Notes under the pieces: generated by a model
What the model was told of the DNA's origin: nothing
Seen by the model: the letters and a program-made list of their open reading frames with translations, nothing else
The model's database searches: none
NCBI GenBank assembly: GCA_963826115.1
Contig: CAWGVS010000006.1
Span: 96,001-160,000, forward strand
Reading direction: 5' to 3'
DNA length: 64,000 nucleotides
Origin: an uncultured Candidatus Rokubacteria bacterium
GTDB lineage: Bacteria; Methylomirabilota; Methylomirabilia; Rokubacteriales; DASRDR01
Part shown: positions 2,745-23,552 of the stretch, one piece after another
How the letters are laid out: each line of letters begins with the position of its first letter
How positions within the stretch are numbered: the stretch's first letter is position 1
Made by a program: the position numbers and the translations under genes

Positions 2745-3176
2745 CTACTCCCGCCTCGGGAGCGGCTCGGTCACCATGCCGACCCGCTCGACGCCGGCGC
2801 GCCGCACCCGGTCCATGGTCTCGACGACCTGCCCGTAGGGGAGCTCCTTGTCGGCCTTGATGAAGATCGTCCGGTCGGCGCGGTCCCGGAGGAGGTCGCG
2901 AAGCCGCGTCTCGAGGTTCGCCAGCGGGAGCGGGCGCTCGTTGAGGTAGAGCACGCGGTCCTTCGTGATCGTCAGGACCAGCCGCTCCTCGACCGCCGTG
3001 GGCTTGCCCCCGCTCCGCGGCAGGTTCACGTCGATGCCCCGGTACATCATGGGCGCCGTCAGCATGAAGATGAGCAGCAGGACGAGGACGACGTCGACGA
3101 GAGGAATGACGTTGATCTCGGCCAGAGTGCTGCGGGTGCCAGCACCCTCCGTGCCGGCATCGGCCTTGATCGCCAT
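2745..3176 (-). CDS. tolR: TolR/ExbD biopolymer transport protein
   Basis: EINVIPLVDVVLVLLLIFMLTAP and IKADKELPYGQVV motifs. Confidence 0.92.
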   Translation of the reverse strand: MAIKADAGTEGAGTRSTLAEINVIPLVDVVLVLLLIFMLTAPMMYRGIDVNLPRSGGKPTAVEERLVLTITKDRVLYLNERPLPLANLETRLRDLLRDRADRTIFIKADKELPYGQVVETMDRVRRAGVERVGMVTEPLPRRE

Positions 3177-8767: not shown

Positions 8768-9667
8768 TCAGCCCCGGTGGGCGAGCGCCACGCCGGCCAG
8801 AACGGCCAGCGCGCCCGCGACGAGCGCGAGGGTGAGCGTCTCCTGGCCCGCCAGCACGGCGATCGTCGTGGCGATCAGCGGGATGAGGAACGAGAACCCC
8901 ACCACGCGGGCGGTCGCCGTGCGCGCGAGCGCCACGTACCAGAGGAGGTTCGCCAGGGCGATCGTGCCGGCGGAGAGATAGGCCAGGAGGAGCCACTCCC
9001 GGAAGGACAGCGCGCTCCAGCCCACCTCGGCGAGGCCGGGCGCGCCGAGCGGGAGCAGAGGCACGACGCCGATCGCGGTCGCCCAGGTCGTCACGGCGAG
9101 CGGCGTCGCCCGCGCGAGCAGGGGCTTCCCCACCACGGTGTAGAGCGCCCAGGCGAGGCTCGCGCCGAGGCACAGGAGGTCGCCCACGAGGGAGGTGGAG
9201 CCCTCGTTGCCGCGGGCCACGATCACGGCGACACCCGCGAAGCCGAGCGCGATGCCCGCCAGGCGGCGCGGGCCGACCGTCTCGCCGTAGAGGAGCCAGG
9301 CGAGGAGCACCGCGAGGACCGGGCTCAGCGCCACCAGGATGGCGGCGTGGCCCGGCGACGTGCGATGGATGCCCGAGACCAGGAGGCCGTGGAAGAGGGT
9401 GTTCCCGAGGAGCCCCAGCAGGACGACCACGCCCCAGTCGCGCGCCCGGAGGCCCGGCCGGAGGGCGCCGCTCAGGAGGCCCACCAGGACCAGGATGGCG
9501 GCGGCGACCGCGCAGCGAAACGTGGCGAAGGCGAGCGGGGGGAAGAACGGCTGCGTCGCCTTGATCGCGGGATAGCTGCCGCCCCAGAGCAGGACGACGA
9601 AGAACAGGATCGGGACGACGGCGGCGCCGGCCGCGCGCCGTCCCGAAGGCCGGCCGGGGTCCGTCAG
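8768..9667 (-). CDS. DMT/EamA family transporter (probable CTG start overlapping upstream TGA)
   Basis: Ten-TM pattern; the frame stays open upstream of 9484 through LFFVVLLWGGSYPAIK to CTG 9667. Confidence 0.8.
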   Translation of the reverse strand: MTDPGRPSGRRAAGAAVVPILFFVVLLWGGSYPAIKATQPFFPPLAFATFRCAVAAAILVLVGLLSGALRPGLRARDWGVVVLLGLLGNTLFHGLLVSGIHRTSPGHAAILVALSPVLAVLLAWLLYGETVGPRRLAGIALGFAGVAVIVARGNEGSTSLVGDLLCLGASLAWALYTVVGKPLLARATPLAVTTWATAIGVVPLLPLGAPGLAEVGWSALSFREWLLLAYLSAGTIALANLLWYVALARTATARVVGFSFLIPLIATTIAVLAGQETLTLALVAGALAVLAGVALAHRG

Positions 9668-10005
9668 CGGGTCTTCATGTCTTCGGGGAAGTTCGAGGAG
9701 AAGGAGTAGGACTTGACCACGCCCTGGGCGTTGAAGGTGACCTCGAGCTGCTTGGAGAGGTCACCGTCCTTCCCCGATCCCTTCTGGAAGTAGTACCAGG
9801 TCCAGGTCTGGTCCCCGTCCTTCATGCCGACCTGCGTCGGATCGCCGTACATCTTGAGGAGGTCGGCCTTCGTCGTCGCGCCGTTCTTGATCTCCGCTCC
9901 CGGCTTGGGCGACGGGAAGTCGCGGCCCGTCGACAGCGCGCTGCACGCAGCGAGCGAAGCGGCGAACGCGAGGACGGACATGAGCGCGGTCAGACGGTTT
10001 CGCAT
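9664..10005 (-). CDS. SmpA/BamE-like outer-membrane lipoprotein
   Basis: MRNRLTALMSVLAFAASLAAC lipobox; IKNGATTKADLLKMYGDP...WTWYY...LEVTFNAQGVVKSY; GGAGG RBS; TTGACA-18-TACAGT promoter at 10041-10070. Confidence 0.75.
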   Translation of the reverse strand: MRNRLTALMSVLAFAASLAACSALSTGRDFPSPKPGAEIKNGATTKADLLKMYGDPTQVGMKDGDQTWTWYYFQKGSGKDGDLSKQLEVTFNAQGVVKSYSFSSNFPEDMKTR

Positions 10006-10321
10006 CGCGGGCCTCCTGGGTGGGGTGTTGAACGGCGCCCACTGTAGCCGACCACCGTCCGGGGTGTCAACGCGCGGCGCGCGGCGCCGCCGGCCGCCTT
10101 GACACCCCTCGGGGGGTCCGCCTAGCGTGAACCACGCTCCCATGGTCGGCCGCGCCTCACCACGGCCCGCGATCGTCGGACGCCGTCGGGTCGGGCCGCG
10201 GCGGACCGGGGATGAGGGTTCGCGTCGGCGAGCCCGGCGTATCCATCGTGCAAGGCCCGGTGCCGGAGCTGGCCGTAGTCCCGTCCGCCCCGCGCACTGA
10301 CCGGATCGGGAGGAGACGACG

Positions 10322-11443
10322 ATGCAAAGTGGCTGGCTCGAACAGTTCCACCGTCGTGTTGCCACGCCCAAGACGGAGCCCGAGGCCGCCCCGCCGCCGG
10401 AGGCGCCGGCCGAGGTGTCGCGGCGGGCGTTCATCCAGAGCGGTCTCGCGACGGGCGTCACGGCCGGCATGGCCGCGGGCGGCATGCTCGCCCAGACGCA
10501 GGTGGCGCAGGCCCAGGCGACGGGCGACACACCGCTCGGCGCGAAGTGGTGGCCGTCGAAGTGGGGCCCCCAGGATCAGGCCGGCGCCTCGAACCTGATC
10601 ACGCCGGCGAAGGTGCTGGAGGCGGCCAAGCTCATCAAGACCGGGAAGATCTACGAGCTCGGCCGCATGTACGAGGCGGGCATGCCGCTCTTCGGCTCCC
10701 GGGTCTTCGCCCTCCGCATCCCCGGCACGCCGACCGGCGGACCGTTCGGGAAGAACAAGCTCGTCTTCCACGACGAGTTCGTCGCCACGGAGATCGGCCA
10801 GGTCGGGACCCAGTTCGACGGGCTCGGCCACATCGGCTGCATCGTGGGCAAGGACGGCGACATGAACGAGATGCGGTACTACAACGGCTTCACGGAGGCG
10901 GAGATGGCGAACGCCTACGGCCTCCAGAAGCTGGGAATCGAGCACTGCAAGCCGTTCTTCACCCGCGGGGTCCTGGTCGACGTGGCGGGCCTCAAGGGCC
11001 GCATGCTGAACCTGGGCGAGGAGATCTCGGTCGCCGACGTCCAGGCGGCCCTCCAGCGTCAGAACATCGCCGAGTCCAGCATTCAGCCCGGCGACGGCGT
11101 GTTCTTTCACACCGGATGGAGCAGCCTCTGGATGAAGGACAACGCGAAGTTCAACGAGGGCGAGCCCGGCATCGGGCTGGACGTCGCGCGCTGGTGCGTG
11201 GCCAAGCAGGTGGCGCTCGTGGGAGCGGACACGTGGGCCACCGAGGTCGTGCCGAATCCGAACCCGGACCTGGTGTTCGCCGTCCACAACGAGCTGATCA
11301 CCAAGAACGGGATCTACAACCACGAGAACCTGGACTTCACGGGGCTGCTCGCGGACAAGGTCTCCGAGTTCGTCTACGTCTTCTCGCCGCTCCGCATCAA
11401 GGGCGGAACCGGCTCCCCCGGCCGCCCGATCGCGATCGTGTAG
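10322..11443 (+). CDS. Cyclase family (kynurenine formamidase-like) metallohydrolase with Tat signal
   Basis: SRRAFIQSG twin-arginine motif; QVGTQFDGLGH, GDGVFFHTGW, HENLD, GGTGSPGRPIA. Confidence 0.85.
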   Translation: MQSGWLEQFHRRVATPKTEPEAAPPPEAPAEVSRRAFIQSGLATGVTAGMAAGGMLAQTQVAQAQATGDTPLGAKWWPSKWGPQDQAGASNLITPAKVLEAAKLIKTGKIYELGRMYEAGMPLFGSRVFALRIPGTPTGGPFGKNKLVFHDEFVATEIGQVGTQFDGLGHIGCIVGKDGDMNEMRYYNGFTEAEMANAYGLQKLGIEHCKPFFTRGVLVDVAGLKGRMLNLGEEISVADVQAALQRQNIAESSIQPGDGVFFHTGWSSLWMKDNAKFNEGEPGIGLDVARWCVAKQVALVGADTWATEVVPNPNPDLVFAVHNELITKNGIYNHENLDFTGLLADKVSEFVYVFSPLRIKGGTGSPGRPIAIV

Positions 11444-11604
11444 CGGCCGATTCCCCGCTCCGGGGCCGATCGGCGGCCCCGGAGCGTTTCTCCTCTCGTT
11501 TGCCACGGGATCGCGGTGGCGTTGCGGAGCGGCCCCGCACCCGGGCTATCATCCGGTGTGCGCGCCGCGCCCGCCGTCCGACCCCGACCGATGACGCGCG
11601 TCCC

Positions 11605-12354
11605 GTGAGCTCCGGAGCCGCGGTGGGGCGCGGTCCGAGCCCATCCCGCGCGGAGGTCTGGGCCGGTGTCCGGGACGCGCTGACGACGGTCGTCCCGAGC
11701 ATCGTCGCGTACGGCATCGTCTGGGGCGGCCTCGCCCGGCAGGCCGGGCTCTCGCTGGGTGAGCTCGTCGCGATGTGCCTCCTCGTCACCGCCGGGACCG
11801 CGCAGTTCGTCGCGCTGCCGATGCTCCAGGCGGGCGCGCCCGCGTGGCTCCTCGTCGTGACCACCTACATCGTGAACCTCCGCCACTACCTGATGGCCGC
11901 CAGCCTGGCGCCCCACCTCGCCCACCTCTCGCGCGGACGCCTCGCGCTCATCGCCCACGGGGTCACGGACGAGTCGTACGCGCTCACGATGGCGCGGTTC
12001 GCGACGCACCGCCCGCACCCCGCCTACTTCGCCGGCTCGGCCGCCACGACGTACCTGGCCTGGTACGTCGGCGCCACGCTGGGCGGGCTCCTGGGCGGGC
12101 GCATTCCCGACCCGCATCGCTACGGCCTCGACTTCGTGTTCCCCGCCGTGTTCATCGCGATCCTGGCGCGAACGATCCAGTCGCCCTGGCAGTGGGCGGT
12201 GGCCGGGGTCGCCGCGGCCGTGGCGCTCCTCGTCAAGGGCACGATCGGGGGGACGTGGCACATCGCGCTGGCCGGGCTCGGCGCCTCGGCGCTCGGCATC
12301 TGGCTCGCGCCCCGCGCCGAGGCCGGCGGCGCGCGGACGGAGTCGTCGCGATGA
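11605..12354 (+). CDS. azlC: AzlC family branched-chain amino acid exporter
   Basis: AGTAQFVA, VNLRHYLM, TDESYA, YGLDFVFPAVFI. Confidence 0.88.
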   Translation: MSSGAAVGRGPSPSRAEVWAGVRDALTTVVPSIVAYGIVWGGLARQAGLSLGELVAMCLLVTAGTAQFVALPMLQAGAPAWLLVVTTYIVNLRHYLMAASLAPHLAHLSRGRLALIAHGVTDESYALTMARFATHRPHPAYFAGSAATTYLAWYVGATLGGLLGGRIPDPHRYGLDFVFPAVFIAILARTIQSPWQWAVAGVAAAVALLVKGTIGGTWHIALAGLGASALGIWLAPRAEAGGARTESSR

Positions 12355-12671
12355 GGCTGGGCCTCGTGCTCACCTTCGCCGCGATGGGGGTGGCGACGTA
12401 CCTGACGCGCGCGCCGCTGCTCCTGGTGCTCGCCCGGCGGCGCCTGCCGGGCTGGCTCGAGCGGTACTTCGCCGCCCTCCCGATCGCGCTCATCACCGCG
12501 CTCGCGCTGCCGCTGGTCCTGCTGACCCCGGGCGGCGCCATGCCCGGCTGGGTGACCGACCTGCCCGCCGCGGTGGCGGTCGCGGTCCTCGCGCGCCGCA
12601 CGGGACACCTCCTGGTGGCCGTGGCGGGAGGCGTCGTGCTGGTCGCCGCTCTTCGCGCCCTGCTAGGATAG
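12351..12671 (+). CDS. azlD: AzlD family membrane protein
   Basis: ATGA overlap with azlC; MGVATYLTRAPLL. Confidence 0.82.
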   Translation: MRLGLVLTFAAMGVATYLTRAPLLLVLARRRLPGWLERYFAALPIALITALALPLVLLTPGGAMPGWVTDLPAAVAVAVLARRTGHLLVAVAGGVVLVAALRALLG

Positions 12672-14322: not shown

Positions 14323-15225
14323 TCAGCCGCGGGCGCCGCGCGGCGCCGGGTCCGCGTCGGCCTCGACGAGCGCGGCGAGCGCGGCGAGCCCCCCGAGATC
14401 CCGCGGCCGCCTCAGCCGGCGCACGGGCACCGTGGCCGCGAGCCGGGCGCAGCGCGCGAGGAAGCTCGACGTGCCGAGCTGCTCGAGCGCCGGCGCGATG
14501 TAGGCGTGCTGGAGCAGCTCGAAGACCGCGGTGTGCCCGCCGAGGGGCTCGAGGCCCAGCGGCTCGCCGTTGGCAAGGACGTAGAGGCGTCGGAGAGCCT
14601 GCGGGGCCATCGCCCGGATGCTGGGGACCTTCGCTCGCTTCTCCTCGTTCGCGTAGAGGCGGGGCAGCGCCTCGGGGTTCTCGCCGAGGGCGGACACCGC
14701 ATCGGGCCAGAGCTTGAGCTGGGGGAATCCCGGCACGACGGTCGGCCCGGCCGGCGCGTCGAGGTCCACGGCGAGCACGTCGTCCGCCACGACGGCGCCG
14801 CCGCGCGCGTGGAGCGCCGCCGTCGTGGTCGACTTCCCGTCGCCGGAATGGCCGAGGAACGCGACCGCGCCGCCGGCGACGGTCGCCGCGCTCGCGTGAA
14901 GAACGACGAGGCCGCGCTGGTGAAGGAGCACGCCAAGCGCCGGTCCGAGCAGGTAGAGGCGCAGGAGCTCCGGGGGCACCCCCGGCCGCGGGTCGACCGT
15001 GATCTCCTCGCCGCGGCGCAGGAGGATCGTGCCGACCTCGGGCCACGCGAGGCGGGCCTCGCCGTCCGTCACGCTGAGCAAGTGCCCGCCGGCCGGCGGC
15101 GGGCTCGGGACGTCCGGGACCCTGCCCAGGCGCACCACGACGTCCGGCGGGGCCGGGCCCGGGACGAGCTCCGGCAGTTCGAGCGCCGAGTGGATACCCA
15201 GGCCGTACGCGACGTACGTGAACAC
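14323..15225 (-). CDS. HPr-kinase-like RiPP kinase (PadeK-type lasso peptide kinase)
   Basis: YVAYGLGIHSALELPEL N-terminus; LHASA, Walker A GHSGDGKST, VADDV; last gene of the lasso-type operon. Confidence 0.85.
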   Translation of the reverse strand: MFTYVAYGLGIHSALELPELVPGPAPPDVVVRLGRVPDVPSPPPAGGHLLSVTDGEARLAWPEVGTILLRRGEEITVDPRPGVPPELLRLYLLGPALGVLLHQRGLVVLHASAATVAGGAVAFLGHSGDGKSTTTAALHARGGAVVADDVLAVDLDAPAGPTVVPGFPQLKLWPDAVSALGENPEALPRLYANEEKRAKVPSIRAMAPQALRRLYVLANGEPLGLEPLGGHTAVFELLQHAYIAPALEQLGTSSFLARCARLAATVPVRRLRRPRDLGGLAALAALVEADADPAPRGARG

Positions 15226-15269: not shown

Positions 15270-15800
15270 TCAGGCGGCGGGCTCGGTCTCGCGCAGCGCC
15301 AGCTCGACCCGGAGGGCGGCGACGTCGCCGCGCAGCGCCCTGAGCTCGCGCTCGAGGGCTTCGAGCCGCGTCGCCTGGGCCTGCACGAGGCCGTGGAGGC
15401 CCTGGATGGCCGCGAGGGCGACCCCGGCCGCGTCGAGGGGGAAGATGTGGCGGTCGTCGACCCCCAGGCCGAAGGCCGCGGCGAAGTCCTGGGCCATCGG
15501 TCCCAGGTGACGGACCGGCTCACCCTTGTAGGACCAGCGCTCGATCGGCAGCGCAACGACCGCCGCCAGGACCGAGTGCCGATCGACGGCTTCGAATTCT
15601 TCTTTGGCGTTCCGGTCGCTTTGTACTGTGCCCGATTGGCCAAGGGTGAGAGCGGAGAGGCGCCCGTGCTCGGTGAGCCGAGGGCTTCGGTACGGCTTCC
15701 GGGCGCTGGTGGACGCCGGCGTCGCGGGCTCGGCGTCCGTCTGACCATTCGTGACGATCACGTCGCTCGTCGGTGCCTGGGTCGCGATGCGCTGGTCCAT
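15270..15800 (-). CDS. RiPP precursor A1: lasso-type leader + core GQSGTVQ + peptidase S74 (ICA) domain + coiled coil
   Basis: RKPYRSPRLTEHGRLSALTL|GQSGTVQ|SDRNAKEEF...LPIERWSYK...HLGPMAQDF...LAAIQGLHGLVQAQATRLEALERELRAL; GGAGG RBS. Confidence 0.85.
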   Translation of the reverse strand: MDQRIATQAPTSDVIVTNGQTDAEPATPASTSARKPYRSPRLTEHGRLSALTLGQSGTVQSDRNAKEEFEAVDRHSVLAAVVALPIERWSYKGEPVRHLGPMAQDFAAAFGLGVDDRHIFPLDAAGVALAAIQGLHGLVQAQATRLEALERELRALRGDVAALRVELALRETEPAA

Positions 15801-15931
15801 GGCGTCCCTCCCGAAGTCCGAAGGATCAGGCCGGCCACGCCACCCTGCGCCGGCATGGAGCGCTCACAAGCGGGTGCCGTGCCCCTCTCCATCTTGCGCC
15901 GAGTGGAACGTCCGCTTCAAGGGTCGGAGCG

Positions 15932-16459
15932 TCAGGGGACGGGCTCGCTCTCACGCAGGGCGAGTTCGACCCGGAGGGCGGCGGCGTCTCCGCGTAACTC
16001 CGCCAACTGGCGCTCGAGGGCTTCGAGCCGCGTCGCCTGGGCCCGCACGAGGCCGTGGAGGCCCTGGATGGCCGCGAGGGCGACCCCGGCCGCGTCGAGG
16101 GGGAAGATGTGGCGGTCGTCGACCCCCAGGCCGAAGGCCGCGGCGAAGTCCTGGGCCATCGGTCCCAGGTGACGGACCGGCTCACCCTTGTAGGACCAGC
16201 GCTCGATCGGCAATGCGGCGACCGCCGCCAGGACTGAATGACGATCGACGGCTTCGAATTCTTCTTTGGCGTTCCGGTCGCTCGGTGGGCTGGATTGGCC
16301 AAGGGTGAGACCGGACAGGCGCCCGTGCTCGGTGAGCCGGGGGCGCGTGTACGGCTTCCGGGCGCTGGTGGACGTCTCCGTCGCGGGCCCGGCCTCCGTC
16401 TGACCCTGGGCGACACTCGGGTCGCTCGTCGGTGTCTGGCTCGGGATGCTCGAGTCCAT
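15932..16459 (-). CDS. RiPP precursor A2: lasso-type leader + core GQSSPP + peptidase S74 (ICA) domain
   Basis: ATG 16459 with GGAGG RBS; RKPYTRPRLTEHGRLSGLTL|GQSSPP|SDRNAK...GPMAQD. Confidence 0.85.
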   Translation of the reverse strand: MDSSIPSQTPTSDPSVAQGQTEAGPATETSTSARKPYTRPRLTEHGRLSGLTLGQSSPPSDRNAKEEFEAVDRHSVLAAVAALPIERWSYKGEPVRHLGPMAQDFAAAFGLGVDDRHIFPLDAAGVALAAIQGLHGLVRAQATRLEALERQLAELRGDAAALRVELALRESEPVP

Positions 16460-16586
16460 GGCGTCCCTCCTGAAGACCGAAGGATCGGGCCGACCATGCC
16501 GGTCGCAGGCATGGAGTGTTGAAGCGGACGTCGTGCCGAGTCCATCTTGCGCCGAGTCGAACGTCCGCTTCAAGGGATTCGGGCCG

Positions 16587-17081
16587 TCAGGCGACGGGCT
16601 CCCTCTCACGCAGGGCGAGCTCGACCCGGAGGGTGGCCGCGTCTCGGCGTAGCGCTGCCAGCTCGCGCTCGAGGGCTTCGAGCCGCGTCGCCTGGGCTTG
16701 CACGAGGCCGTGGAGGCCCTGGATGGCCGCGAGCGCGACTCCGGCCGCGTCGACCGGGAAGATGTGACGGTCGTCCGCGCCGAGGCCGAAGGCCGCGGCG
16801 AAGTCCTGCGCCATCGGCCCGAGATGGCGAGCCGCCTCGCCGCGATAGGACCACCGCTCGATCGGCAGGTGGAGAAGTCCGGCCAGCACCTCGCGGGGGT
16901 CGACCGGCACGAAGCCCTCCTTCAGGGCTCGATCGCTGGTGATGGTCGACGGGCCCGCGGTGGCCGTCGCGATCGTCCCGTGCTCGACCAGGCGGGGCGT
17001 TGCGTAGGGTTTGCGAGCTCCCGCCGGTTGCGGCGGCGGGGGCGTCGCGGGCTGGGGCGTCTCGGCCGGCTTCCGCTCCAT
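16587..17081 (-). CDS. RiPP precursor A3: lasso-type leader + core GPSTIT + peptidase S74 (ICA) domain
   Basis: ATG 17081 with AAGGAG RBS (C-terminal part of track ORF 16587..18680); RKPYATPRLVEHGTIATATA|GPSTIT|SDRALK...GPMAQD. Confidence 0.85.
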   Translation of the reverse strand: MERKPAETPQPATPPPPQPAGARKPYATPRLVEHGTIATATAGPSTITSDRALKEGFVPVDPREVLAGLLHLPIERWSYRGEAARHLGPMAQDFAAAFGLGADDRHIFPVDAAGVALAAIQGLHGLVQAQATRLEALERELAALRRDAATLRVELALREREPVA

Positions 17082-17137: not shown

Positions 17138-19021
17138 TCACGGCGTCGCGCGGCGAAGCCACAGGGTCAGGACGGCGAGCCGCCACACGGCGCGCACCTC
17201 CCGCATCCCGTCCCGTGTCGCGTACGCGCGATAAGTGCGCCGGACGGTCTCCGACGGCACGTACGGGTCGAGCGTGCGCGCGGCCTCGCGCATGAGGACG
17301 TCGAGCCGTTCGCGGCCGTACACGGTGAGCGCCGAGCGGAGCATCAGGTCGATCGGGGCCTTCCCGCGCCGGTCCCGGATCTCGGCAGGCAAGAGCGTGG
17401 CGAGGGCGTGCCGCGCGACGATGCGCGTCAGGCCGCGCCGGATCTTCTGGGACGCCGGGAGCGCGAGGCAGAACTCCATGACCCGGCGGTCGAGGAAGGG
17501 GTCCCGCGAGTCGAGCCCCACCGCGTCGCCGGCGGCGGCCAGCGTTTCCAGGGTGGCCGCCATCCGGGGCGCGGTCAGCTGGCGCCAGTGATCGTAGCGC
17601 GCCCACTCGACGCCGGTCGGCGGCGGCCCGGGCTCCGCCGCCCTGAGCCGCTCGTCGAGCCGGATCCGCCGCGCGAAGTCGGTCCGGATCAGCGGCGGCC
17701 CCAGGACGCCCTGGCGGCGCAGGCGTCGCCAGGCGCGGCGGGCCGGCCGGGGCGCCACCGAGGCCGCGACCATCCGCAGGACGCGCCAGGCCGATCGCTC
17801 GAACGACCGCGAGAACCGGCGCGCCTCTCGGGCGAGCGCCAGCCACCGGCCCTGGCGGGCGAGGTCGCCCAGGTAACCCGTTCCGTGGGAAACGACGACG
17901 TCGCCCCCGGTTCCCTCCAGGAACGTGCGCATCCCGTCGGCGCTCGCCGCGCGGTAGAGCGCCCAGTGCATGTAGTACCCGGGCGCCCTGAACACCTCGT
18001 CCCCCGGCCCGGCCTCGCGCTCGAAATCCCCGAGCGGGTCGAGCACGTCCCCGCGGACGTGGCGCGGCGCGAGCCCGCCGCCCGCCTCGACGGCCGCGAC
18101 GTAGGCGCCCTCGTCGCAGGAGGGGATCGTCGGGAAGCGCGCCGTGTAGGTCGTGAGCGGACCCGTGCCCATCGCCGCTTGGACCGCGCGAGCGACGCAC
18201 ACCACCGCCGAGGAGTCGAGCCCGCCGCTCAGCGCGGCGGCGACGGGGCCCGCGCTGCGGAGGCGGCAGCGCACGGCGTCGGTGAACAGCTCGCGGAACC
18301 GCTCGGCGTACTCGGCGTCCGACCCGAGCCGCAACTCTCGCATCGGGTCGAGCTGCCAGTAGGGTCGCGGCGCGGCGGCGCCGGCCGGGGTCACGATCAG
18401 GGAATGCCCCGCCGGCAACCGGGCGATGTCCTCGTGGAGCGTGGCGGTCCGATTGTCGAGCCCCGGGACGAGGTAGGCGGCGATTCGGAGCTCGTCGATC
18501 CGCCGCGGGACGTCGGGGATCGCGAACAGGGCGGCCGTCCCCGAGGCGGCGGCGAACACGCGCGGGCCGGCATGATAGTAGAGGGGCTTCACGCCCGCCG
18601 GATCGCGCGCGCAGAAGAGCACCCGGCGCCGGGCGTCCCACACGACGAACGCGAAATCGCCCAGGAGCCGCGCCGCGCACGCCTCGCCCCAGCGCTCCCA
18701 GGCGCGGAGGATGAGCGCCCCGTCGCCGAGGTCGTCGGCGCGCCGCGGGTCGAGGTCGAGGGCCGCGGCGAGCTCGGCGCGGTTGTCGAGCCGCGCGTCG
18801 GCGGTGACGACCACCTCGCCGGTGTCGCTCGCCCGGGGCAGCTTCTCCTCGAGGCCCGTGGCGCCGGCCCGGAGCGCCCGGTGGCCGAGGCCGACCGGGC
18901 CGTCCAGCCAGACGCCGACGGCGTCGGCGGCGCGGGGCGCGAGACGCTCGGTGACCCGGTCGAGCGCCAGTCGGTCGAGCGGCGCGCCGTCGAGCCGCCG
19001 GATCGCGGCGATGCCGCTCAT
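17138..19021 (-). CDS. Lasso cyclase-like asparagine synthetase homolog (C protein)
   Basis: Starts MSGIAA (no catalytic Cys of AsnB); DARLDNRAEL, GDFAFVVWD, ARDPAGVKPLYY, ALSGGLDSS PP-loop, RDPFLDRRVMEFCLALP. Confidence 0.9.
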   Translation of the reverse strand: MSGIAAIRRLDGAPLDRLALDRVTERLAPRAADAVGVWLDGPVGLGHRALRAGATGLEEKLPRASDTGEVVVTADARLDNRAELAAALDLDPRRADDLGDGALILRAWERWGEACAARLLGDFAFVVWDARRRVLFCARDPAGVKPLYYHAGPRVFAAASGTAALFAIPDVPRRIDELRIAAYLVPGLDNRTATLHEDIARLPAGHSLIVTPAGAAAPRPYWQLDPMRELRLGSDAEYAERFRELFTDAVRCRLRSAGPVAAALSGGLDSSAVVCVARAVQAAMGTGPLTTYTARFPTIPSCDEGAYVAAVEAGGGLAPRHVRGDVLDPLGDFEREAGPGDEVFRAPGYYMHWALYRAASADGMRTFLEGTGGDVVVSHGTGYLGDLARQGRWLALAREARRFSRSFERSAWRVLRMVAASVAPRPARRAWRRLRRQGVLGPPLIRTDFARRIRLDERLRAAEPGPPPTGVEWARYDHWRQLTAPRMAATLETLAAAGDAVGLDSRDPFLDRRVMEFCLALPASQKIRRGLTRIVARHALATLLPAEIRDRRGKAPIDLMLRSALTVYGRERLDVLMREAARTLDPYVPSETVRRTYRAYATRDGMREVRAVWRLAVLTLWLRRATP

Positions 19022-19452
19022 CGCGGCGTGCCCAGCGCCGACAGGCTCACGTAGCGGGTCTCGACCGGGCCGCCGATCACGACGCGCCCGTCGTGCTCGA
19101 GCCAGGCGTGCGCCTCGAAGCCGCGACCTCCGCCACCGGCCACCCCCAGCTTGAGCTCGCTCGGGTGCCCGTGACGGCCGAGCAGGGCGTGCGCCGCCAG
19201 CGCCCGGACGAGGCACGTCGTCCGCGGCACAAGGCAGTCGGCGGCGCCCACGGCCCAGACGATCCGTTCGACCGACGGTGTCCGGCCCGTCCGTATGCCG
19301 GGGTCATTCGCGAGCGCGCCCACCGCGCCGTGGACGCGCCGGAACGGGAGCACCCACAGTCCGACGCGGACGCCCGCCAGGAGCCCCGCGGCGGCAAGGA
19401 CCAGGCGTTGCTCGGCGGACGGCAGCGCGAGGAATCTAGCGACGCGCCTCAC
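19018..19452 (-). CDS. Lasso peptide B2 leader peptidase (transglutaminase-like)
   Basis: TTCLVRALA (catalytic Cys), LKLGV, FEAHAWLEHDG. Confidence 0.92.
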   Translation of the reverse strand: MRRVARFLALPSAEQRLVLAAAGLLAGVRVGLWVLPFRRVHGAVGALANDPGIRTGRTPSVERIVWAVGAADCLVPRTTCLVRALAAHALLGRHGHPSELKLGVAGGGGRGFEAHAWLEHDGRVVIGGPVETRYVSLSALGTPR

Positions 19453-19735
19453 CGGAGACCTCGAGAAGCCCGGCCTCGGCCATGGTCCGGAGGAGGGCGA
19501 GGAGGTCCGCCTCGCAGCGCGCGGAGTCGACCTCGTACTCCCGGAGCAGCGCGTCCCGGACGTCCCGCACGCGCCGCGGCGTCGCGATGAGCTCCCAGAT
19601 GCGGGCTCCGATCGGGTCCAGCCCGTAGTAGACGCCGGCCTTCAGCTGGACGATCGCGACCTCGTCCTCGAGGCGGCAGGAGGCCTGCTCCTTCGAGGCC
19701 ACGACGACCGTGTCGAGCGAGATGGCGCCGTCCAC
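19436..19735 (-). CDS. PqqD-family RiPP recognition element (lasso B1/E protein)
   Basis: LEDEVAIVQLKAGVYYGLDPIGARIWELI...LLREYEVDSARCEADLLALLRTMAEAGLL. Confidence 0.92.
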   Translation of the reverse strand: MDGAISLDTVVVASKEQASCRLEDEVAIVQLKAGVYYGLDPIGARIWELIATPRRVRDVRDALLREYEVDSARCEADLLALLRTMAEAGLLEVSGEARR

Positions 19736-19778
19736 GGTGTCAGGCGCTCCCCGGCGCGCCGTCGCTCGGCACGGCCCG

Positions 19779-19807
19779 ATCGTATCCCGGTCCCCCGCGC
19801 GCGACAA
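19779..19807 (-). promoter_or_regulatory. Putative sigma70 promoter of the RiPP operon
   Basis: Minus strand TTGTCG-17 nt-TACGAT just upstream of the RRE gene. Confidence 0.5.
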
Positions 19808-19819
19808 TCGCGCGCGGCG

Positions 19820-21022
19820 CTAGGCCGGGCCGCGGAAGTCGTCCTTCGCGGCCCGGAGCGCGGCCGGGTCGGCCAGGAGGTCGAGGGCGGTCAGCGCGAG
19901 AGCCTTGGCGCCGGCCACCATGCCGGCTCGCGCGAGCGGCGTCGCGTTGTGCTCCGCGAACTCGCGCGAATGGCCCGGTACCCCGTCGGGCGCCGTACGG
20001 ATGTAGGGATGGATCGTGGGGAGGGCCTGGCTCACGTTTCCGGCGTCCGTCGAGCCGTACCCCGCCTGGCCGTCGTCGGGGTCCACGGGAAAGTCGATGC
20101 GCGCGAGGTTTCGCTCGAAGAGATCCGCCATCGGCGCGTTCGGCTTGAGCGGGTCGTGGATCCGCGGATCCACCGTCACCTGGACGCGGCAGCCCGTCGC
20201 CAGGGCCGCGCCCTCCGCGGCCGCCTCGAACCGTCGCCGGATCTCCTGGAGGTACGTCCTGTCGAGCGAGCGGAGGTAGAAGTCCGCGGCGGTGTACTCC
20301 GGGATGATGTTGGGCTGCTGCCCGCCCACCGTGATCACCCCGTGGATGCGCGCGTCGGGGCGGAGCTGCTGCCGCATCGCGTCCAGCGCGTTGAAGAGCC
20401 CGATGACGGCGTTGAGCGCGTTGACCCCGCGCCACGGCCACGACGCCGCGTGCGCCGCGGTGCCGAAGTACTCCACCTTCGCCTTCATGAGCCCGAGGGT
20501 CGGGCGCCAGACCTGGGTGCCGCAGCGCGGGTGGATCATCATGGCCGCGTCGACGTCCTGGAACACGCCCGCGTCCATGAGCTTGACCTTGCCCGCGCCG
20601 CCCTCCTCCGCGGGCGTGCCGACCACCGTGATCCGGCCCGGGTAGGGGAAGTGCCCCCCGGCGAGGCTCGCGGCGGCGACGGCGAGCGCGGCGCCCGCGC
20701 CGGCGCCGGCGGTCGCGATGACGTTATGGCCGCAGGCGTGGCCGATGCCGGGAAGCGCGTCGTACTCGGCCATCACGGCGATCGTCGGGCCGTCGGCCGT
20801 GCCGGGCACCTCGGCGCGGAAGGCGGTCGGCAGGCCGCCCACCCCGCGCTCGACGCGGCAACCCCGGCGCTCGAGGAACTCCGTCAGCCAGCGCGCCGCC
20901 TGCTCCTCCTTGAACGCGAGCTCGGGGTGCGCGTGGATCTGGAGCGCGAGTCGCCAGAGATCCTCGGCCATTCCGTCGACGGCGTCGGTCACGCGGCTCT
21001 TGAGACGGTCCAGGTCGCTCAT
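19820..21022 (-). CDS. M20 family amidohydrolase (PM20D2/AbgB-like)
   Basis: IHAHPELAFKE, AEYDALPGIGHACGHN, GTPAEEGGAGK, GSTDAGNVS. Confidence 0.9.
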   Translation of the reverse strand: MSDLDRLKSRVTDAVDGMAEDLWRLALQIHAHPELAFKEEQAARWLTEFLERRGCRVERGVGGLPTAFRAEVPGTADGPTIAVMAEYDALPGIGHACGHNVIATAGAGAGAALAVAAASLAGGHFPYPGRITVVGTPAEEGGAGKVKLMDAGVFQDVDAAMMIHPRCGTQVWRPTLGLMKAKVEYFGTAAHAASWPWRGVNALNAVIGLFNALDAMRQQLRPDARIHGVITVGGQQPNIIPEYTAADFYLRSLDRTYLQEIRRRFEAAAEGAALATGCRVQVTVDPRIHDPLKPNAPMADLFERNLARIDFPVDPDDGQAGYGSTDAGNVSQALPTIHPYIRTAPDGVPGHSREFAEHNATPLARAGMVAGAKALALTALDLLADPAALRAAKDDFRGPA

Positions 21023-21118
21023 GGCGGGCCTCCACGGAGGGATCGGGCGAGTGGGGCGCGACTCGGCGCGGGCCGCAGGCTCCCACGCCCGTCCCGCGAC
21101 TGTCAAGGCGACGTCCCG

Positions 21119-22249
21119 TCACCGGCCGGCGGCGCGCCGCGCCTCGGCCCGGCGGCCCGCGGCGATCCGGTCGTCCAGCGATGGGTGCGTGGCGAAGAGG
21201 AGCTCCCGGAGTCGCCCGGGCCGGCGCTCGGCGAGGTTGAGGCGGCCGAGCCGCTCCATGGCGGCGACGAAGGCCGCGGGCGCCCCGCTCACGTCGAGCG
21301 CGATCCGGTCGGCCTCGCGCTCGAGGCGCCGCGACCACGCGGCGATCGGCGGCGTGGCGAGGAGCCCCAGCACGCTGACCACCAGGGCCAGGAACGGCAG
21401 GCCCGCGGGGTCCGCGGGGCCGGCGAGGCCGAGCGACGCGACGCCCATGCGGAGAGCCCGGTCGGCGACCCAGAGGGTCGCGACCAGGAGGGCGCCGTGG
21501 AGCAGGAGACCCTGCGTCATGTGGCTCCGCGCGTGGTGTCCGAGCTCGTGGGCGAGGACGACCTCCACCTCCTCGACGGGGAACTCGCGGAGGAGCGTGT
21601 CGCTCACGAGGATGCGCCGCGTGCGTCCGAGTCCCACCACCGCCGCATTCGCGACGCGGCCCTTGCGCGAGAAGTCGGCAACCAAGACCTCCGCGGCCCG
21701 GACGCCCATCCGCGCGGCGAGCGCGAGGATCCGGGCGCGGAGCTCCCGATCCTCGAGCGGCGTCAGCCGGTAGAAGAGGGGCACGAGCCACACGGGCACC
21801 ACCAAGGTCAGGAGCACGAGGCCCGCCGCCAGCACGCCGCTCGCCCAGAGCCACCACCGCTCCGGGCTCCACTGGAGGAGGCCGTACACCACCTGGGCGG
21901 CGAGGAGCCCGAGCGCGCCGCCGATCGCGAGCGCCTTCGCGCGGTCGCCCAGCCAGCCGGCGAAACGCTGCGTCAGGAGTCCCGCCCGGCGCGGGAGGAC
22001 GAAGCCGCCGACGACGTCGAGCGGAAAGGTCAGGAGCGCCTGCGTGACGCCGAGCGCCAGCGTCATCGTCGCGACGACCGCCGCGGCGGGGAGCCACCCG
22101 TCGAGCCCCGCGGCCAGGCGCGTGGCGGCGCCGCTCCACGCCCACCACACGAGGAGCACGGCGCCGAGCCCGAGGTCGACCAGCGAGAGCGCGAACTGAC
22201 GCCGGTGATACTCGCGGGCCCGGGTGGCCTCCGCGTCGCGCGCGTCCAT
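21119..22249 (-). CDS. M48 family (Ste24-like) membrane zinc protease
   Basis: TM helices; ANAAVVGLGRTRRI, LAHELGH, EREAD, THPSLDDRI. Confidence 0.9.
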   Translation of the reverse strand: MDARDAEATRAREYHRRQFALSLVDLGLGAVLLVWWAWSGAATRLAAGLDGWLPAAAVVATMTLALGVTQALLTFPLDVVGGFVLPRRAGLLTQRFAGWLGDRAKALAIGGALGLLAAQVVYGLLQWSPERWWLWASGVLAAGLVLLTLVVPVWLVPLFYRLTPLEDRELRARILALAARMGVRAAEVLVADFSRKGRVANAAVVGLGRTRRILVSDTLLREFPVEEVEVVLAHELGHHARSHMTQGLLLHGALLVATLWVADRALRMGVASLGLAGPADPAGLPFLALVVSVLGLLATPPIAAWSRRLEREADRIALDVSGAPAAFVAAMERLGRLNLAERRPGRLRELLFATHPSLDDRIAAGRRAEARRAAGR

Positions 22250-22319
22250 CGCTTCACAAGCGTAGCGCGGACGCCCGCGCGCGGCCACCCGCGCGCGCCG
22301 CGGTGGTACGATGACTCGC

Positions 22320-23552
22320 GTGACGAAGCCGCCTCCGGCCGAGCGCCGCGCGCCCGACGTGACCGACGCGCTGGCGCCGGGGGCCGTCGGCGCGGTCCGG
22401 GTGCGCCCGAACACCCGCGTGCTCGGTCTCCTGGCGCTCGGCCACCTCGTGGTCGACATGAACCAGGGGTCGATCGCGCCGCTCTTGCCCTTCTTCAAGT
22501 CGGCCTTCGGGCTGTCCTACGCGGCGTCCGGGGTCATCCTGCTCGTGGGGAACATGACCTCGTCGATCGTCCAGCCGGTGTTCGGCTACCTCGCGGACCG
22601 GGCGCCGCGGCGTTGGCTCCTGCCCTGGGCCGTGCTCCTGTCGGCGGTCGGGGTCGCCGTGGCCGGGGTGGCGCCGTCGTACTGGGGCCTGCTGGCGGTG
22701 GTCGTCGTGTCGGGGCTCGGCGTCGCCGCCTATCACCCCGAGGGCTACCGCACGGCGAACCAGGTCGCGGGCGACCGGAAGGCCACGGGACTGTCGCTCT
22801 TCTCGATCGGCGGGAACATCGGCATCGCCCTCGGGCCGCCGGCGATCGCCTTCCTCGTCCCGCGGTTCGGCCTGCCCGGGACCCTCGGCCTCCTCGGGCC
22901 CGGCCTCGTGGTCGCGGCGCTGATCGCCGCGATCCTGCCGGCGCTCATCGCGGCGCCCGCCAAGAGCGCGCCGGCGCGCACGGCGGGGGAGCGCGGCCGC
23001 GACATGCCGGGGGCCATGGCGCTCCTCATCGGGGTCGTGACCGTGCGGTCGTGGACGCAGCTCGGCCTGATCGCCTACGTGCCCTTCCTCTACGTCGACC
23101 TCCTCGGCAAGGACCCGCGCGTCGCCGGGCCGCTCCTCTTCCTCTTCCTCGGCGCCGGCGCCGTGGGCACGCTCACCGGCGGCCCGATCGCCGACCGCTG
23201 GGGCCCGCGGCGCTATCTCGTCGGGAGCTTCCTCCTGTCGACGCCGCTGATCGCGCTCTTCCTCTGGTGGCCGGGCGGCTGGGTGGCCGCGATCACGCTC
23301 GCGGCGGCCGGCTTCGTCCTGGTGTCGTCGTTCTCGGTGACCGTCGCGCTCGGTCAGGCCTATCTCCCGCGGCGTCTCGGCATGGCGGCCGGCCTGATCG
23401 TGGGGCTGGCCATCGGCACGGGCGGGCTCGGCGTCGCGCTGCTCGGCTGGGTCGCGGACCACTGGGGCCTCTACGCCGCGCTCCACCTGATCGCCGCGCT
23501 CCCGCTCGCCGGCCTCGCCGTCGCGCTCTGTCTGCCCGAGCCCCGGGCCTAA
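22320..23552 (+). CDS. MFS transporter (Fsr-like); start 22311 or 22320
   Basis: GHLVVDMNQG, QPVFGYLADR, YHPEG, FSIGGNIGIALGP. Confidence 0.88.
   Translation: MTKPPPAERRAPDVTDALAPGAVGAVRVRPNTRVLGLLALGHLVVDMNQGSIAPLLPFFKSAFGLSYAASGVILLVGNMTSSIVQPVFGYLADRAPRRWLLPWAVLLSAVGVAVAGVAPSYWGLLAVVVVSGLGVAAYHPEGYRTANQVAGDRKATGLSLFSIGGNIGIALGPPAIAFLVPRFGLPGTLGLLGPGLVVAALIAAILPALIAAPAKSAPARTAGERGRDMPGAMALLIGVVTVRSWTQLGLIAYVPFLYVDLLGKDPRVAGPLLFLFLGAGAVGTLTGGPIADRWGPRRYLVGSFLLSTPLIALFLWWPGGWVAAITLAAAGFVLVSSFSVTVALGQAYLPRRLGMAAGLIVGLAIGTGGLGVALLGWVADHWGLYAALHLIAALPLAGLAVALCLPEPRA

Follow-up and report, generated by a model that had tools for sequence, protein, structure and literature searches.

Peptidase_S74 domains fused to lasso-type precursors in a Rokubacteria gene cluster, and the aspartate of their cleavage motif

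A 64,000-nucleotide stretch from an uncultured Candidatus Rokubacteria bacterium (assembly GCA_963826115.1, contig CAWGVS010000006.1, positions 96,001 to 160,000 of the forward strand), hereafter the window, carries a gene cluster with three precursor genes, A1, A2 and A3. Each encodes a variable N-terminal stretch, a lasso-peptide leader, a core of 6-7 residues and a Peptidase_S74 domain. An earlier note on this DNA drew attention to the aspartate of the S74 cleavage motif, which lies at core residue 8 or 9, within the 7-9 residues given for lasso rings (PMC8498205), and proposed that it could take part in ring formation. By alignment, this aspartate is the S74 domain's own conserved residue (Ser-Asp-x3-Lys) and probably no dedicated ring acceptor. 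The reading that we favour, at about an even chance, is that A1-A3 are precursors of lasso-type peptides made on ribosomes and modified after translation (RiPPs), in which S74 would be a self-excising follower that fixes the C-terminus of the core and carries the aspartate away with it.

The gene cluster and its precursors

The cluster lies entirely on the minus strand in an operon-like order: B1, B2, cyclase C, A3, A2, A1 and an HPr-kinase-like gene. Precursor A1 (15270-15800, 176 aa) consists of an N-terminal extension, a leader motif from Y37 to L53 (15642-15692), the core GQSGTVQ from G54 to Q60 (15621-15641) and an S74 domain that runs from Ser61 (15618-15620), Asp62 (15615-15617) and Lys66 through to a C-terminal coiled coil; residues 61-110 match PF13884 positions 1-53 with 37.2 bits. 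In A2 (15932-16459, 175 aa, identical to P0003; S74 39.9 bits), the core GQSSPP (16283-16300) is followed by Ser60-Asp61 (16277-16282, Asp codon 16277-16279) and the S74 domain. The same arrangement is found in A3 (16587-17081, 164 aa, identical to P0095; S74 35.4 bits), with the core GPSTIT at 16938-16955 (Gly43 at 16953-16955) and Ser49-Asp50 at 16932-16937 (Asp50 at 16932-16934). The start of A2 was placed at the ATG at 16459, against a GTG at 16609 in the list of open reading frames (ORFs; 15932-16609, 225 aa), because aligned relatives support it, as does P0003, the 175-aa protein of the window itself.

The leader motif YxxPxLx3Gx5Tx, with a small residue at core position 1, can be read directly in all three precursors, and its Thr at -2 is conserved in at least 90% of a 110-member family alignment. 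The NCBIfam model lasso_leader_L3 (NF033521, cut-off 19) recognises A1 (22.7 bits), falls short on A3 (16.9 bits) and has no match in A2. Position 1 of the PF13884 profile falls on the scissile Ser in every case (35.4-39.9 bits, cut-off 22).

Reading the codons gives GQSGTVQSD, GQSSPPSD and GPSTITSD as the cores of A1, A2 and A3 through to the aspartate. This bears out the earlier note on several counts. Counted from the Gly after the leader Thr-x, Asp is residue 9, 8 and 8; no further Asp or Glu stands between Gly and Ser; and the interval singled out in the note, 15615-16955, runs exactly from the Asp codon of A1 to the Gly codon of A3. A candidate acidic acceptor at core positions 7-9 is supplied in A1-A3 only by the S74 aspartate, which is followed by a 114-residue folded domain and not by a short threading tail with bulky plug residues.

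The note's premise of a lasso enzyme set holds as well, since B1, B2 and the cyclase make up, by profile match, the canonical set. The asparagine-synthetase-like cyclase C (17138-19021, minus) scores 607.7 bits on NF033535 (cut-off 525; Pfam Asn_synthase 4e-46) and is the sole match above that cut-off across the window's genome. Its probable start is the Met at ORF residue 66 (MSGI...), where the NF033535 match begins, giving a 4-base overlap with the stop of B2. The transglutaminase-like leader peptidase B2 (19018-19452, minus) is matched by Transglut_core3 (1e-22) and by NF033537 (88.4 bits, cut-off 33). The PqqD-type leader-binding protein B1 (19436-19807, minus) reaches 63.9 bits on Pfam PqqD (cut-off 23.4) and is below the cut-off on the NCBIfam lasso PqqD models (59.8 vs 80). 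Directly downstream of A1 lies the HPr-kinase-like gene (14323-15225, minus), whose family matches are weak throughout (Pfam Hpr_kinase_C 20.2 bits, cut-off 33.3; TIGR04352 23.4 bits, cut-off 200). No ABC exporter gene was identified within the cluster.

An M20-family amidohydrolase (19820-21106, minus) and an M48/HtpX-like membrane peptidase (21119-22498, minus) are encoded directly upstream of B1. Homologs of both hold the same place in the related loci L001, L003 and L004, and the M20 gene also does so in L090. Both genes may belong to the cluster, or their place may reflect mere synteny inside one genus.

The aspartate and its spacing

A homolog search at E <= 0.001 yielded 4543 proteins, 96-308 aa in length, of which the best 120 were analysed. 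Two (P0001 and P0119) lacked the anchor motif and were dropped, leaving 118 cores anchored on the leader, 108 of them unique. Among these unique close cores the aspartate stands at position 7 in 7, at 8 in 30, at 9 in 32, at 10 in 25, at 11 in 9, at 12 in 4 and at 13 in one. The spacing expected from the earlier note, in which ring formation on this residue would hold the distance from Gly to Asp at 7-9, is therefore not kept: the mode does lie at 8-9 and 69 of the 108 fall at 7-9, but 39 lie outside and distant relatives range from 5 to 22. Ten of the best 150 representatives at 50% identity carry the leader, with Asp at 5, 6, 9-12, 14, 17, 18, 21 and 22. Across 80 genome-contig loci, a lasso leader precedes S74 in 10; the Planctomycetota loci L005, L006, L007, L011 and L022 have the aspartate at 14-16 and no acid at 7-9, and in L026, from Chloroflexota, it is residue 14 and a further Asp is residue 7. 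Spacings are also mixed on single contigs, being 9, 8 and 8 in the window, 11 together with 8 on one metagenomic contig, and 9 with 7 elsewhere.

Compensation of longer cores by an internal acid at 7-9 was considered and rejected for the close family by a shuffle test. An acid occupies 7-9 in 7 of the 39 long cores, against 5.7 +/- 1.8 after shuffling, and 32% of shuffles reach 7. In all 118 anchored cores, the S74 aspartate is at 7-9 in 77, an internal acid takes these positions in 8 more, and neither does so in 33. The internal acids of the 108 unique cores gather one and two residues before the Ser (13/108 and 19/108) and at positions 1-2, and keep no fixed distance from the N-terminus. Two distant precursors do resemble complete lasso cores placed before S74 (GGGGTLPD with 11 more residues behind it, and SLGGAGDD with 12).

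Other arrangements of the same parts were seen in two proteins. In P0122 (382 aa), a leader-core-SDxxxK unit that includes some 25 residues from the beginning of S74 is repeated five times in tandem ahead of one full S74 domain, and P0184 (173 aa) carries a second leader and core behind its S74 domain.

The aspartate is also common where no lasso leader is present. Among the best 150 representatives, 6 had no motif match and 8 with a lasso leader were set aside; in the remaining S74 domains, Asp follows the Ser in 123 of 136. Within the family, Ser61, Asp62, Arg63, Lys66, Trp89 and Tyr91 (A1 numbering) are invariant in the 110-member alignment, and the S74 part is the best conserved, with a mean column identity of 62% and many invariant columns. 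A search of the PDB with single sequences gave coiled-coil matches only; the family profile found a weak match (E 0.016) to MyRF, 7dc3. This aligns SDRNxKE with ADLRAKE, so that Ser61 corresponds to S587 (Ala in the crystal), Asp62 to Asp and Lys66 to K592, with Trp89 and Tyr91 on MyRF Y615 and Y617.

For MyRF, the chain is reported to be cut between P586 and S587, as determined by mass spectrometry, and cleavage is lost in S587A and K592A. Ser and Lys are described as a dyad and two Tyr residues as lining the cutting hole (PMC8326128). T5 pb1 is likewise reported to be cut at Thr1263|Ser1264, and in the phi29 structure the density was weak and the Ser was modelled as part of the mature protein (PMC4690869). 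The premise of the earlier note that S74 cuts on the N-terminal side of the Ser is thus documented for MyRF and T5 pb1. A role for the aspartate was not found in the accessible portions of either paper (PMC8326128; PMC4690869). The S74 domains of A1-A3 are, judged from these residues, catalytically intact, and the invariance of Ser and Lys points to selection for cleavage.

Structure prediction adds a picture of where the Ser-Asp pair may lie. AlphaFold2 models the A1 monomer poorly (mean pLDDT 63.3), and helix 121-172 alone is confident (pLDDT 88-98). Three copies of A1 residues 54-176 yield a trimer model that scores 0.90, where the best of three controls reaches 0.01, with at least 91% contact agreement between runs and pLDDT of at least 87. 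In a calibration on two copies, 20 of 30 solved pairs attained this mark, as did 1 of 23 single chains, and the pass may stem from resemblance to solved S74 trimers. The model buries Ser61 and Asp62 between chains: the stretch 57-63, to which both belong, contacts the neighbouring chain, and so does the stretch 65-72. These predicted contacts match the 'cable through donut' described for MyRF, in which the strand with the cleavage site passes through a ring that strands of the adjoining subunit form; cleavage is also reported to need the trimer, with the upstream region possibly dispensable (PMC8326128).

Taken together, the coincidence of the aspartate with a lasso ring position is weaker than first appeared, and the underlying system is unusual. 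The threefold occurrence of this coincidence in A1-A3 exceeds chance only weakly, because about two thirds of the family would look alike and the three precursors are paralogs, not independent cases.

The fate of the core

In the favoured reading, the S74 domain would trimerise through its coiled coil and cut the bond before its Ser. Each chain would thereby free a leader and core with a free C-terminal carboxylate, and a cut before the Ser would leave the aspartate on the departing S74 fragment. B1 and B2 would then take hold of the leader and cut it away behind Thr-x, so that S74 would be to the C-terminus what B2 is to the N-terminus, and the product would derive from the hypervariable 6-7-mer. 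The least certain step is the last, in which the cyclase would close a head-to-tail lactam of 6-7 residues, perhaps after phosphorylation of Ser or Thr by the kinase. Closure on the alpha-carboxylate is favoured because the acid-free cores leave no other carboxylate for an intact cyclase. One of the proposals of the earlier note, a 6-7-mer freed by S74 whose new carboxylate the cyclase would use, is uncontradicted by these data and is the one we favour.

Among the 118 anchored cores, 108 are unique, and their composition is dominated by Pro (20%), Ser (18%), Gly (13%), Ala (12%) and Thr (8%), with Ser and Thr together at 26%; Trp and Tyr are absent, Phe accounts for 0.6% and Arg for 0.1%. The first residue is Gly in 61, Ala in 33, Asp in 8, Thr in 6, Val in 5, Ser in 2 and others in 3.

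Precursors that lack S74 are also found. In L189, from the window's genus, the first of four tandem precursors (1664-1825, minus) has the core GGSLTDA followed by a stop and is without S74; its S74-fused siblings have GGSNSDESTAP, ADLGSAP and GGSPIDS as cores ahead of Ser-Asp. In L090, where the precursors follow the cyclase, the first of them (2945-3154, plus) has the core GGSGADATDS and then a stop, with in-frame remnants of the S74 coiled coil downstream, and L003 and L004 have additional short leader-bearing ORFs upstream of B1. These S74-less paralogs are without the aspartate, and their stop codon lies about where the S74 cut would be expected. A search for short proteins (30-95 aa) sharing leader and core (residues 18-62) gave no candidate beyond the loci examined.

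Several observations weigh against the self-excising follower. Self-cleavage of A1-A3 is something we infer from residue conservation, and its order relative to B2 and the cyclase is presumed as well. An intact cyclase is present, the sole one of the genome, and the three substrates encoded beside it provide no acceptor side chain but that of the S74 aspartate. We know of no precedent for a lasso cyclase performing head-to-tail closure, and alpha-carboxylate rings of 6-7 residues would be smaller than all lasso rings known to us. The mode of the spacing, 8-9 in 62 of the 108 unique cores, coincides with the commonest lasso ring sizes; that a steric minimum causes it is a guess. Of the five S74-less short precursors, only that with GGSGADATDS carries an acid at 7-9, and hence one rule cannot cover all five. 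Finally, 12 S74-fused precursors are linked to a cyclase (three in the window, two each in L001, L003, L004 and L090, and one in L026), and in this tally of few loci and related genomes, mostly of one genus, 11 of the 12 have an acid at 7-9 (the S74 aspartate in 6, an internal acid at 7-8 in 5, neither in 1), as compared with none of five leader-bearing precursors from loci without a detected cyclase. The 11/12 pattern is equally expected if the cyclase limits the length of the core for closure on a terminal carboxylate.

The difference between loci with and without a cyclase also favours a ring on the aspartate, an explanation that we regard as unlikely. Here the cyclase would join Gly1 to the Asp side chain while S74 is still unfolded, and the resulting lactam of 8-9 residues would span the autoproteolytic bond. 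Such a ring could cap the 115-residue domain and block or gate self-cleavage, giving a 'lasso-capped protein', or cleavage could open it, so that the core would stay attached through an isopeptide to the second residue of the S74 fragment. The position of the aspartate as sole acid at 9, 8 and 8, the 69 of 108 unique close cores in range, the canonical and intact cyclase, the Gly at position 1 and the Thr at -2 all speak for it. The spread of spacings, up to 13 in close and 5-22 in distant relatives and with no compensating acid, goes largely against the expectation of the earlier note and weakens both outcomes. In addition, clusters mix spacings, the aspartate is generic to S74 and missing from the S74-less paralogs, and the cleavage for which the invariant Ser and Lys appear to be selected would destroy the ring. 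It should also clash with folding, as the trimer model and the published account of MyRF (PMC8326128) place Ser-Asp inside the neighbouring subunit; in the folded domain the aspartate would probably be hard for the cyclase to reach, and a lactam to Gly54 would sit at the mouth of the hole.

That the cores stay linear is quite unlikely in our estimate. S74 and B2 would trim them to 6-7-mers that are modified by the kinase and never cyclised, with the cyclase idle on them or serving other substrates. The acid-free cores, with their 26% Ser and Thr, suit this account, as does the report that the HPrK homologs known so far modify lasso precursors in linear form (PMC8498205). A further argument comes from L006, a Phycisphaerales locus (8839-12563) that runs B1, B2, S74 precursor, HPrK-like gene and NTP_transf_5, with B2 and the kinase seemingly split by frameshifts in the assembly. 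No cyclase lies within 10 kb on either side, and eight Asn_synthase matches of this genome are either carried by different contigs or separated from the locus by over 0.5 Mb. Three full-length Asn-synthase genes were scanned, leaving out one further split gene, and scored 259.6 bits, 203.1 bits and no match on the lasso cyclase model (cut-off 525); they look like ordinary asparagine synthases. Linear products would have to arise from a cluster of this type, which rests on one genome, because the class-level search gave no other: leader-bearing matches occurred in the L006 genome alone, and any S74 match in 15 of 301 genomes.

The linear account is opposed by the cyclase itself, which scores above the curated cut-off and is kept beside such precursors in the window, in L001, L003, L004 and L026 (found by tblastn with the window proteins) and in L090. 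The search of the window's genome gave no other candidate substrate for it except an acid-free orphan. This orphan, which also counts in favour of linear products, is a 60-aa ORF of the same leader family (PWTTPRLVVHGQIPAVTF) with the acid-free 11-residue core AAPSTVTKTTP, a stop and no S74. It lies outside the window at G000:C6:220008-220190 (L172:1453-1635, L179:9008-9190), between a KAS-III-like gene and a Pfam-less ORF, after which come enoyl-CoA hydratase and AMP-binding genes, a fatty-acid/CoA setting.

It is highly improbable that the S74 trimer with its new N-terminal Ser is the functional product, with leader and core a mere handle for processing or regulation: S74 is the most conserved part and the trimer model is confident, yet a conserved leader, hypervariable core, conserved follower and several paralogs are the usual sign of a library of core-derived peptides, and S74-less paralogs exist.

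The HPr-kinase-like gene keeps its place beside the precursors, with a homolog directly after them in six related loci (L001-L004, L006 and L026); the order in L026 is B1-B2-nucleotidyltransferase-C-A-K. A kinase that needs a C-terminal Ser, supplied by a cut after the Ser, was set aside, given that S74 is documented to cut before it and that only one of the five S74-less precursors ends in Ser.

In the window's phylum, 8 of 251 genomes carry the family at E <= 1e-20; seven of these, counting the window's own genome (G000), belong to its genus. A metagenome scan with S74 patterns returned mostly generic S74 proteins, and a lasso leader was present in 2 of 80 loci (L089 and L090).

S74 domains were also seen behind other peptides. 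In Nostocales and other cyanobacterial loci, S74 comes after a double-glycine leader (LSDEELxxCVGG) plus some 50 residues of peptide, frequently in two genes in tandem (L034, L043, L053-L055, L058, L069, L080, L025, L061 and L071, mostly at about 10001-10900). Cys-rich modules stand directly before S74 in Myxococcota and Chloroflexota, where they are knottin-like (CxxGxxCCxGLxCC), and as CTCNKICTCIPVP repeats in Acidobacteriota; the loci with Cys-rich modules are L008, L030, L046, L068, L075 and L079, together with L010, L013, L019, L021, L023, L033 and L048. The occurrence of S74 behind these leaders and modules fits a general pro-domain for small peptides.

Relation to known systems

If the favoured reading is true, a self-excising follower would be a new route by which a RiPP pathway sets its product's C-terminus with no need of a second protease, and S74 would be a general pro-domain for small bacterial peptides, beyond its part as a phage fibre chaperone. 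A canonical lasso cyclase would then meet acid-free substrates of 6-7 residues, implying unusual chemistry (closure on the alpha-carboxylate or on the S74 aspartate) or a redundant enzyme. A self-cleaving, trimerising tag that frees a leader-bearing peptide could also serve RiPP engineering. No report of S74 fused to lasso or other RiPP precursors, nor of a follower that removes itself in any RiPP class, was found in full-text searches of the literature; supplementary tables of lasso genome-mining papers may list such precursors.

Among the closest known systems are the kinase-bearing lasso clusters of the paeninodin and pseudomycoidin type, which share with the window's cluster separate B1 and B2 proteins, a cyclase of the Asn-synthetase kind, a leader with Thr at -2 and a Gly that opens the core, and, by weak family match in the window, an HPr-kinase homolog next to the precursor (PMC8498205); the relatives L006 and L026 add a nucleotidyltransferase, PF14907. 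The window's cluster differs from them in its precursors, which are 164-176 aa long as against about 40-60 and whose C-terminal 115 residues are an S74 domain, and in its cores, which are acid-free, 6-7 residues long, made of Pro, Ser, Gly, Ala and Thr, and without a tail of plug residues. Known lasso kinases act on a C-terminal Ser, whereas cleavage between X and Ser would not yield one here.

With the S74 or intramolecular chaperone auto-processing (ICA) domains of K1F endosialidase, T5 pb1 and MyRF, the precursors share the Ser-Asp-x3-Lys start, the aromatic pair, the coiled coil and the predicted trimer. Unlike in phage fibres or MyRF, the cargo is neither a beta-helical fibre nor a DNA-binding domain; it is a RiPP leader and core of 53-60 residues, encoded in a lasso operon in a non-phage setting. 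The conserved C-terminal segment after a hypervariable core, and the several paralogs per cluster, recall the follower and recognition sequences that other RiPPs lose after modification. The follower proposed here differs in that it would remove itself by autoproteolysis.

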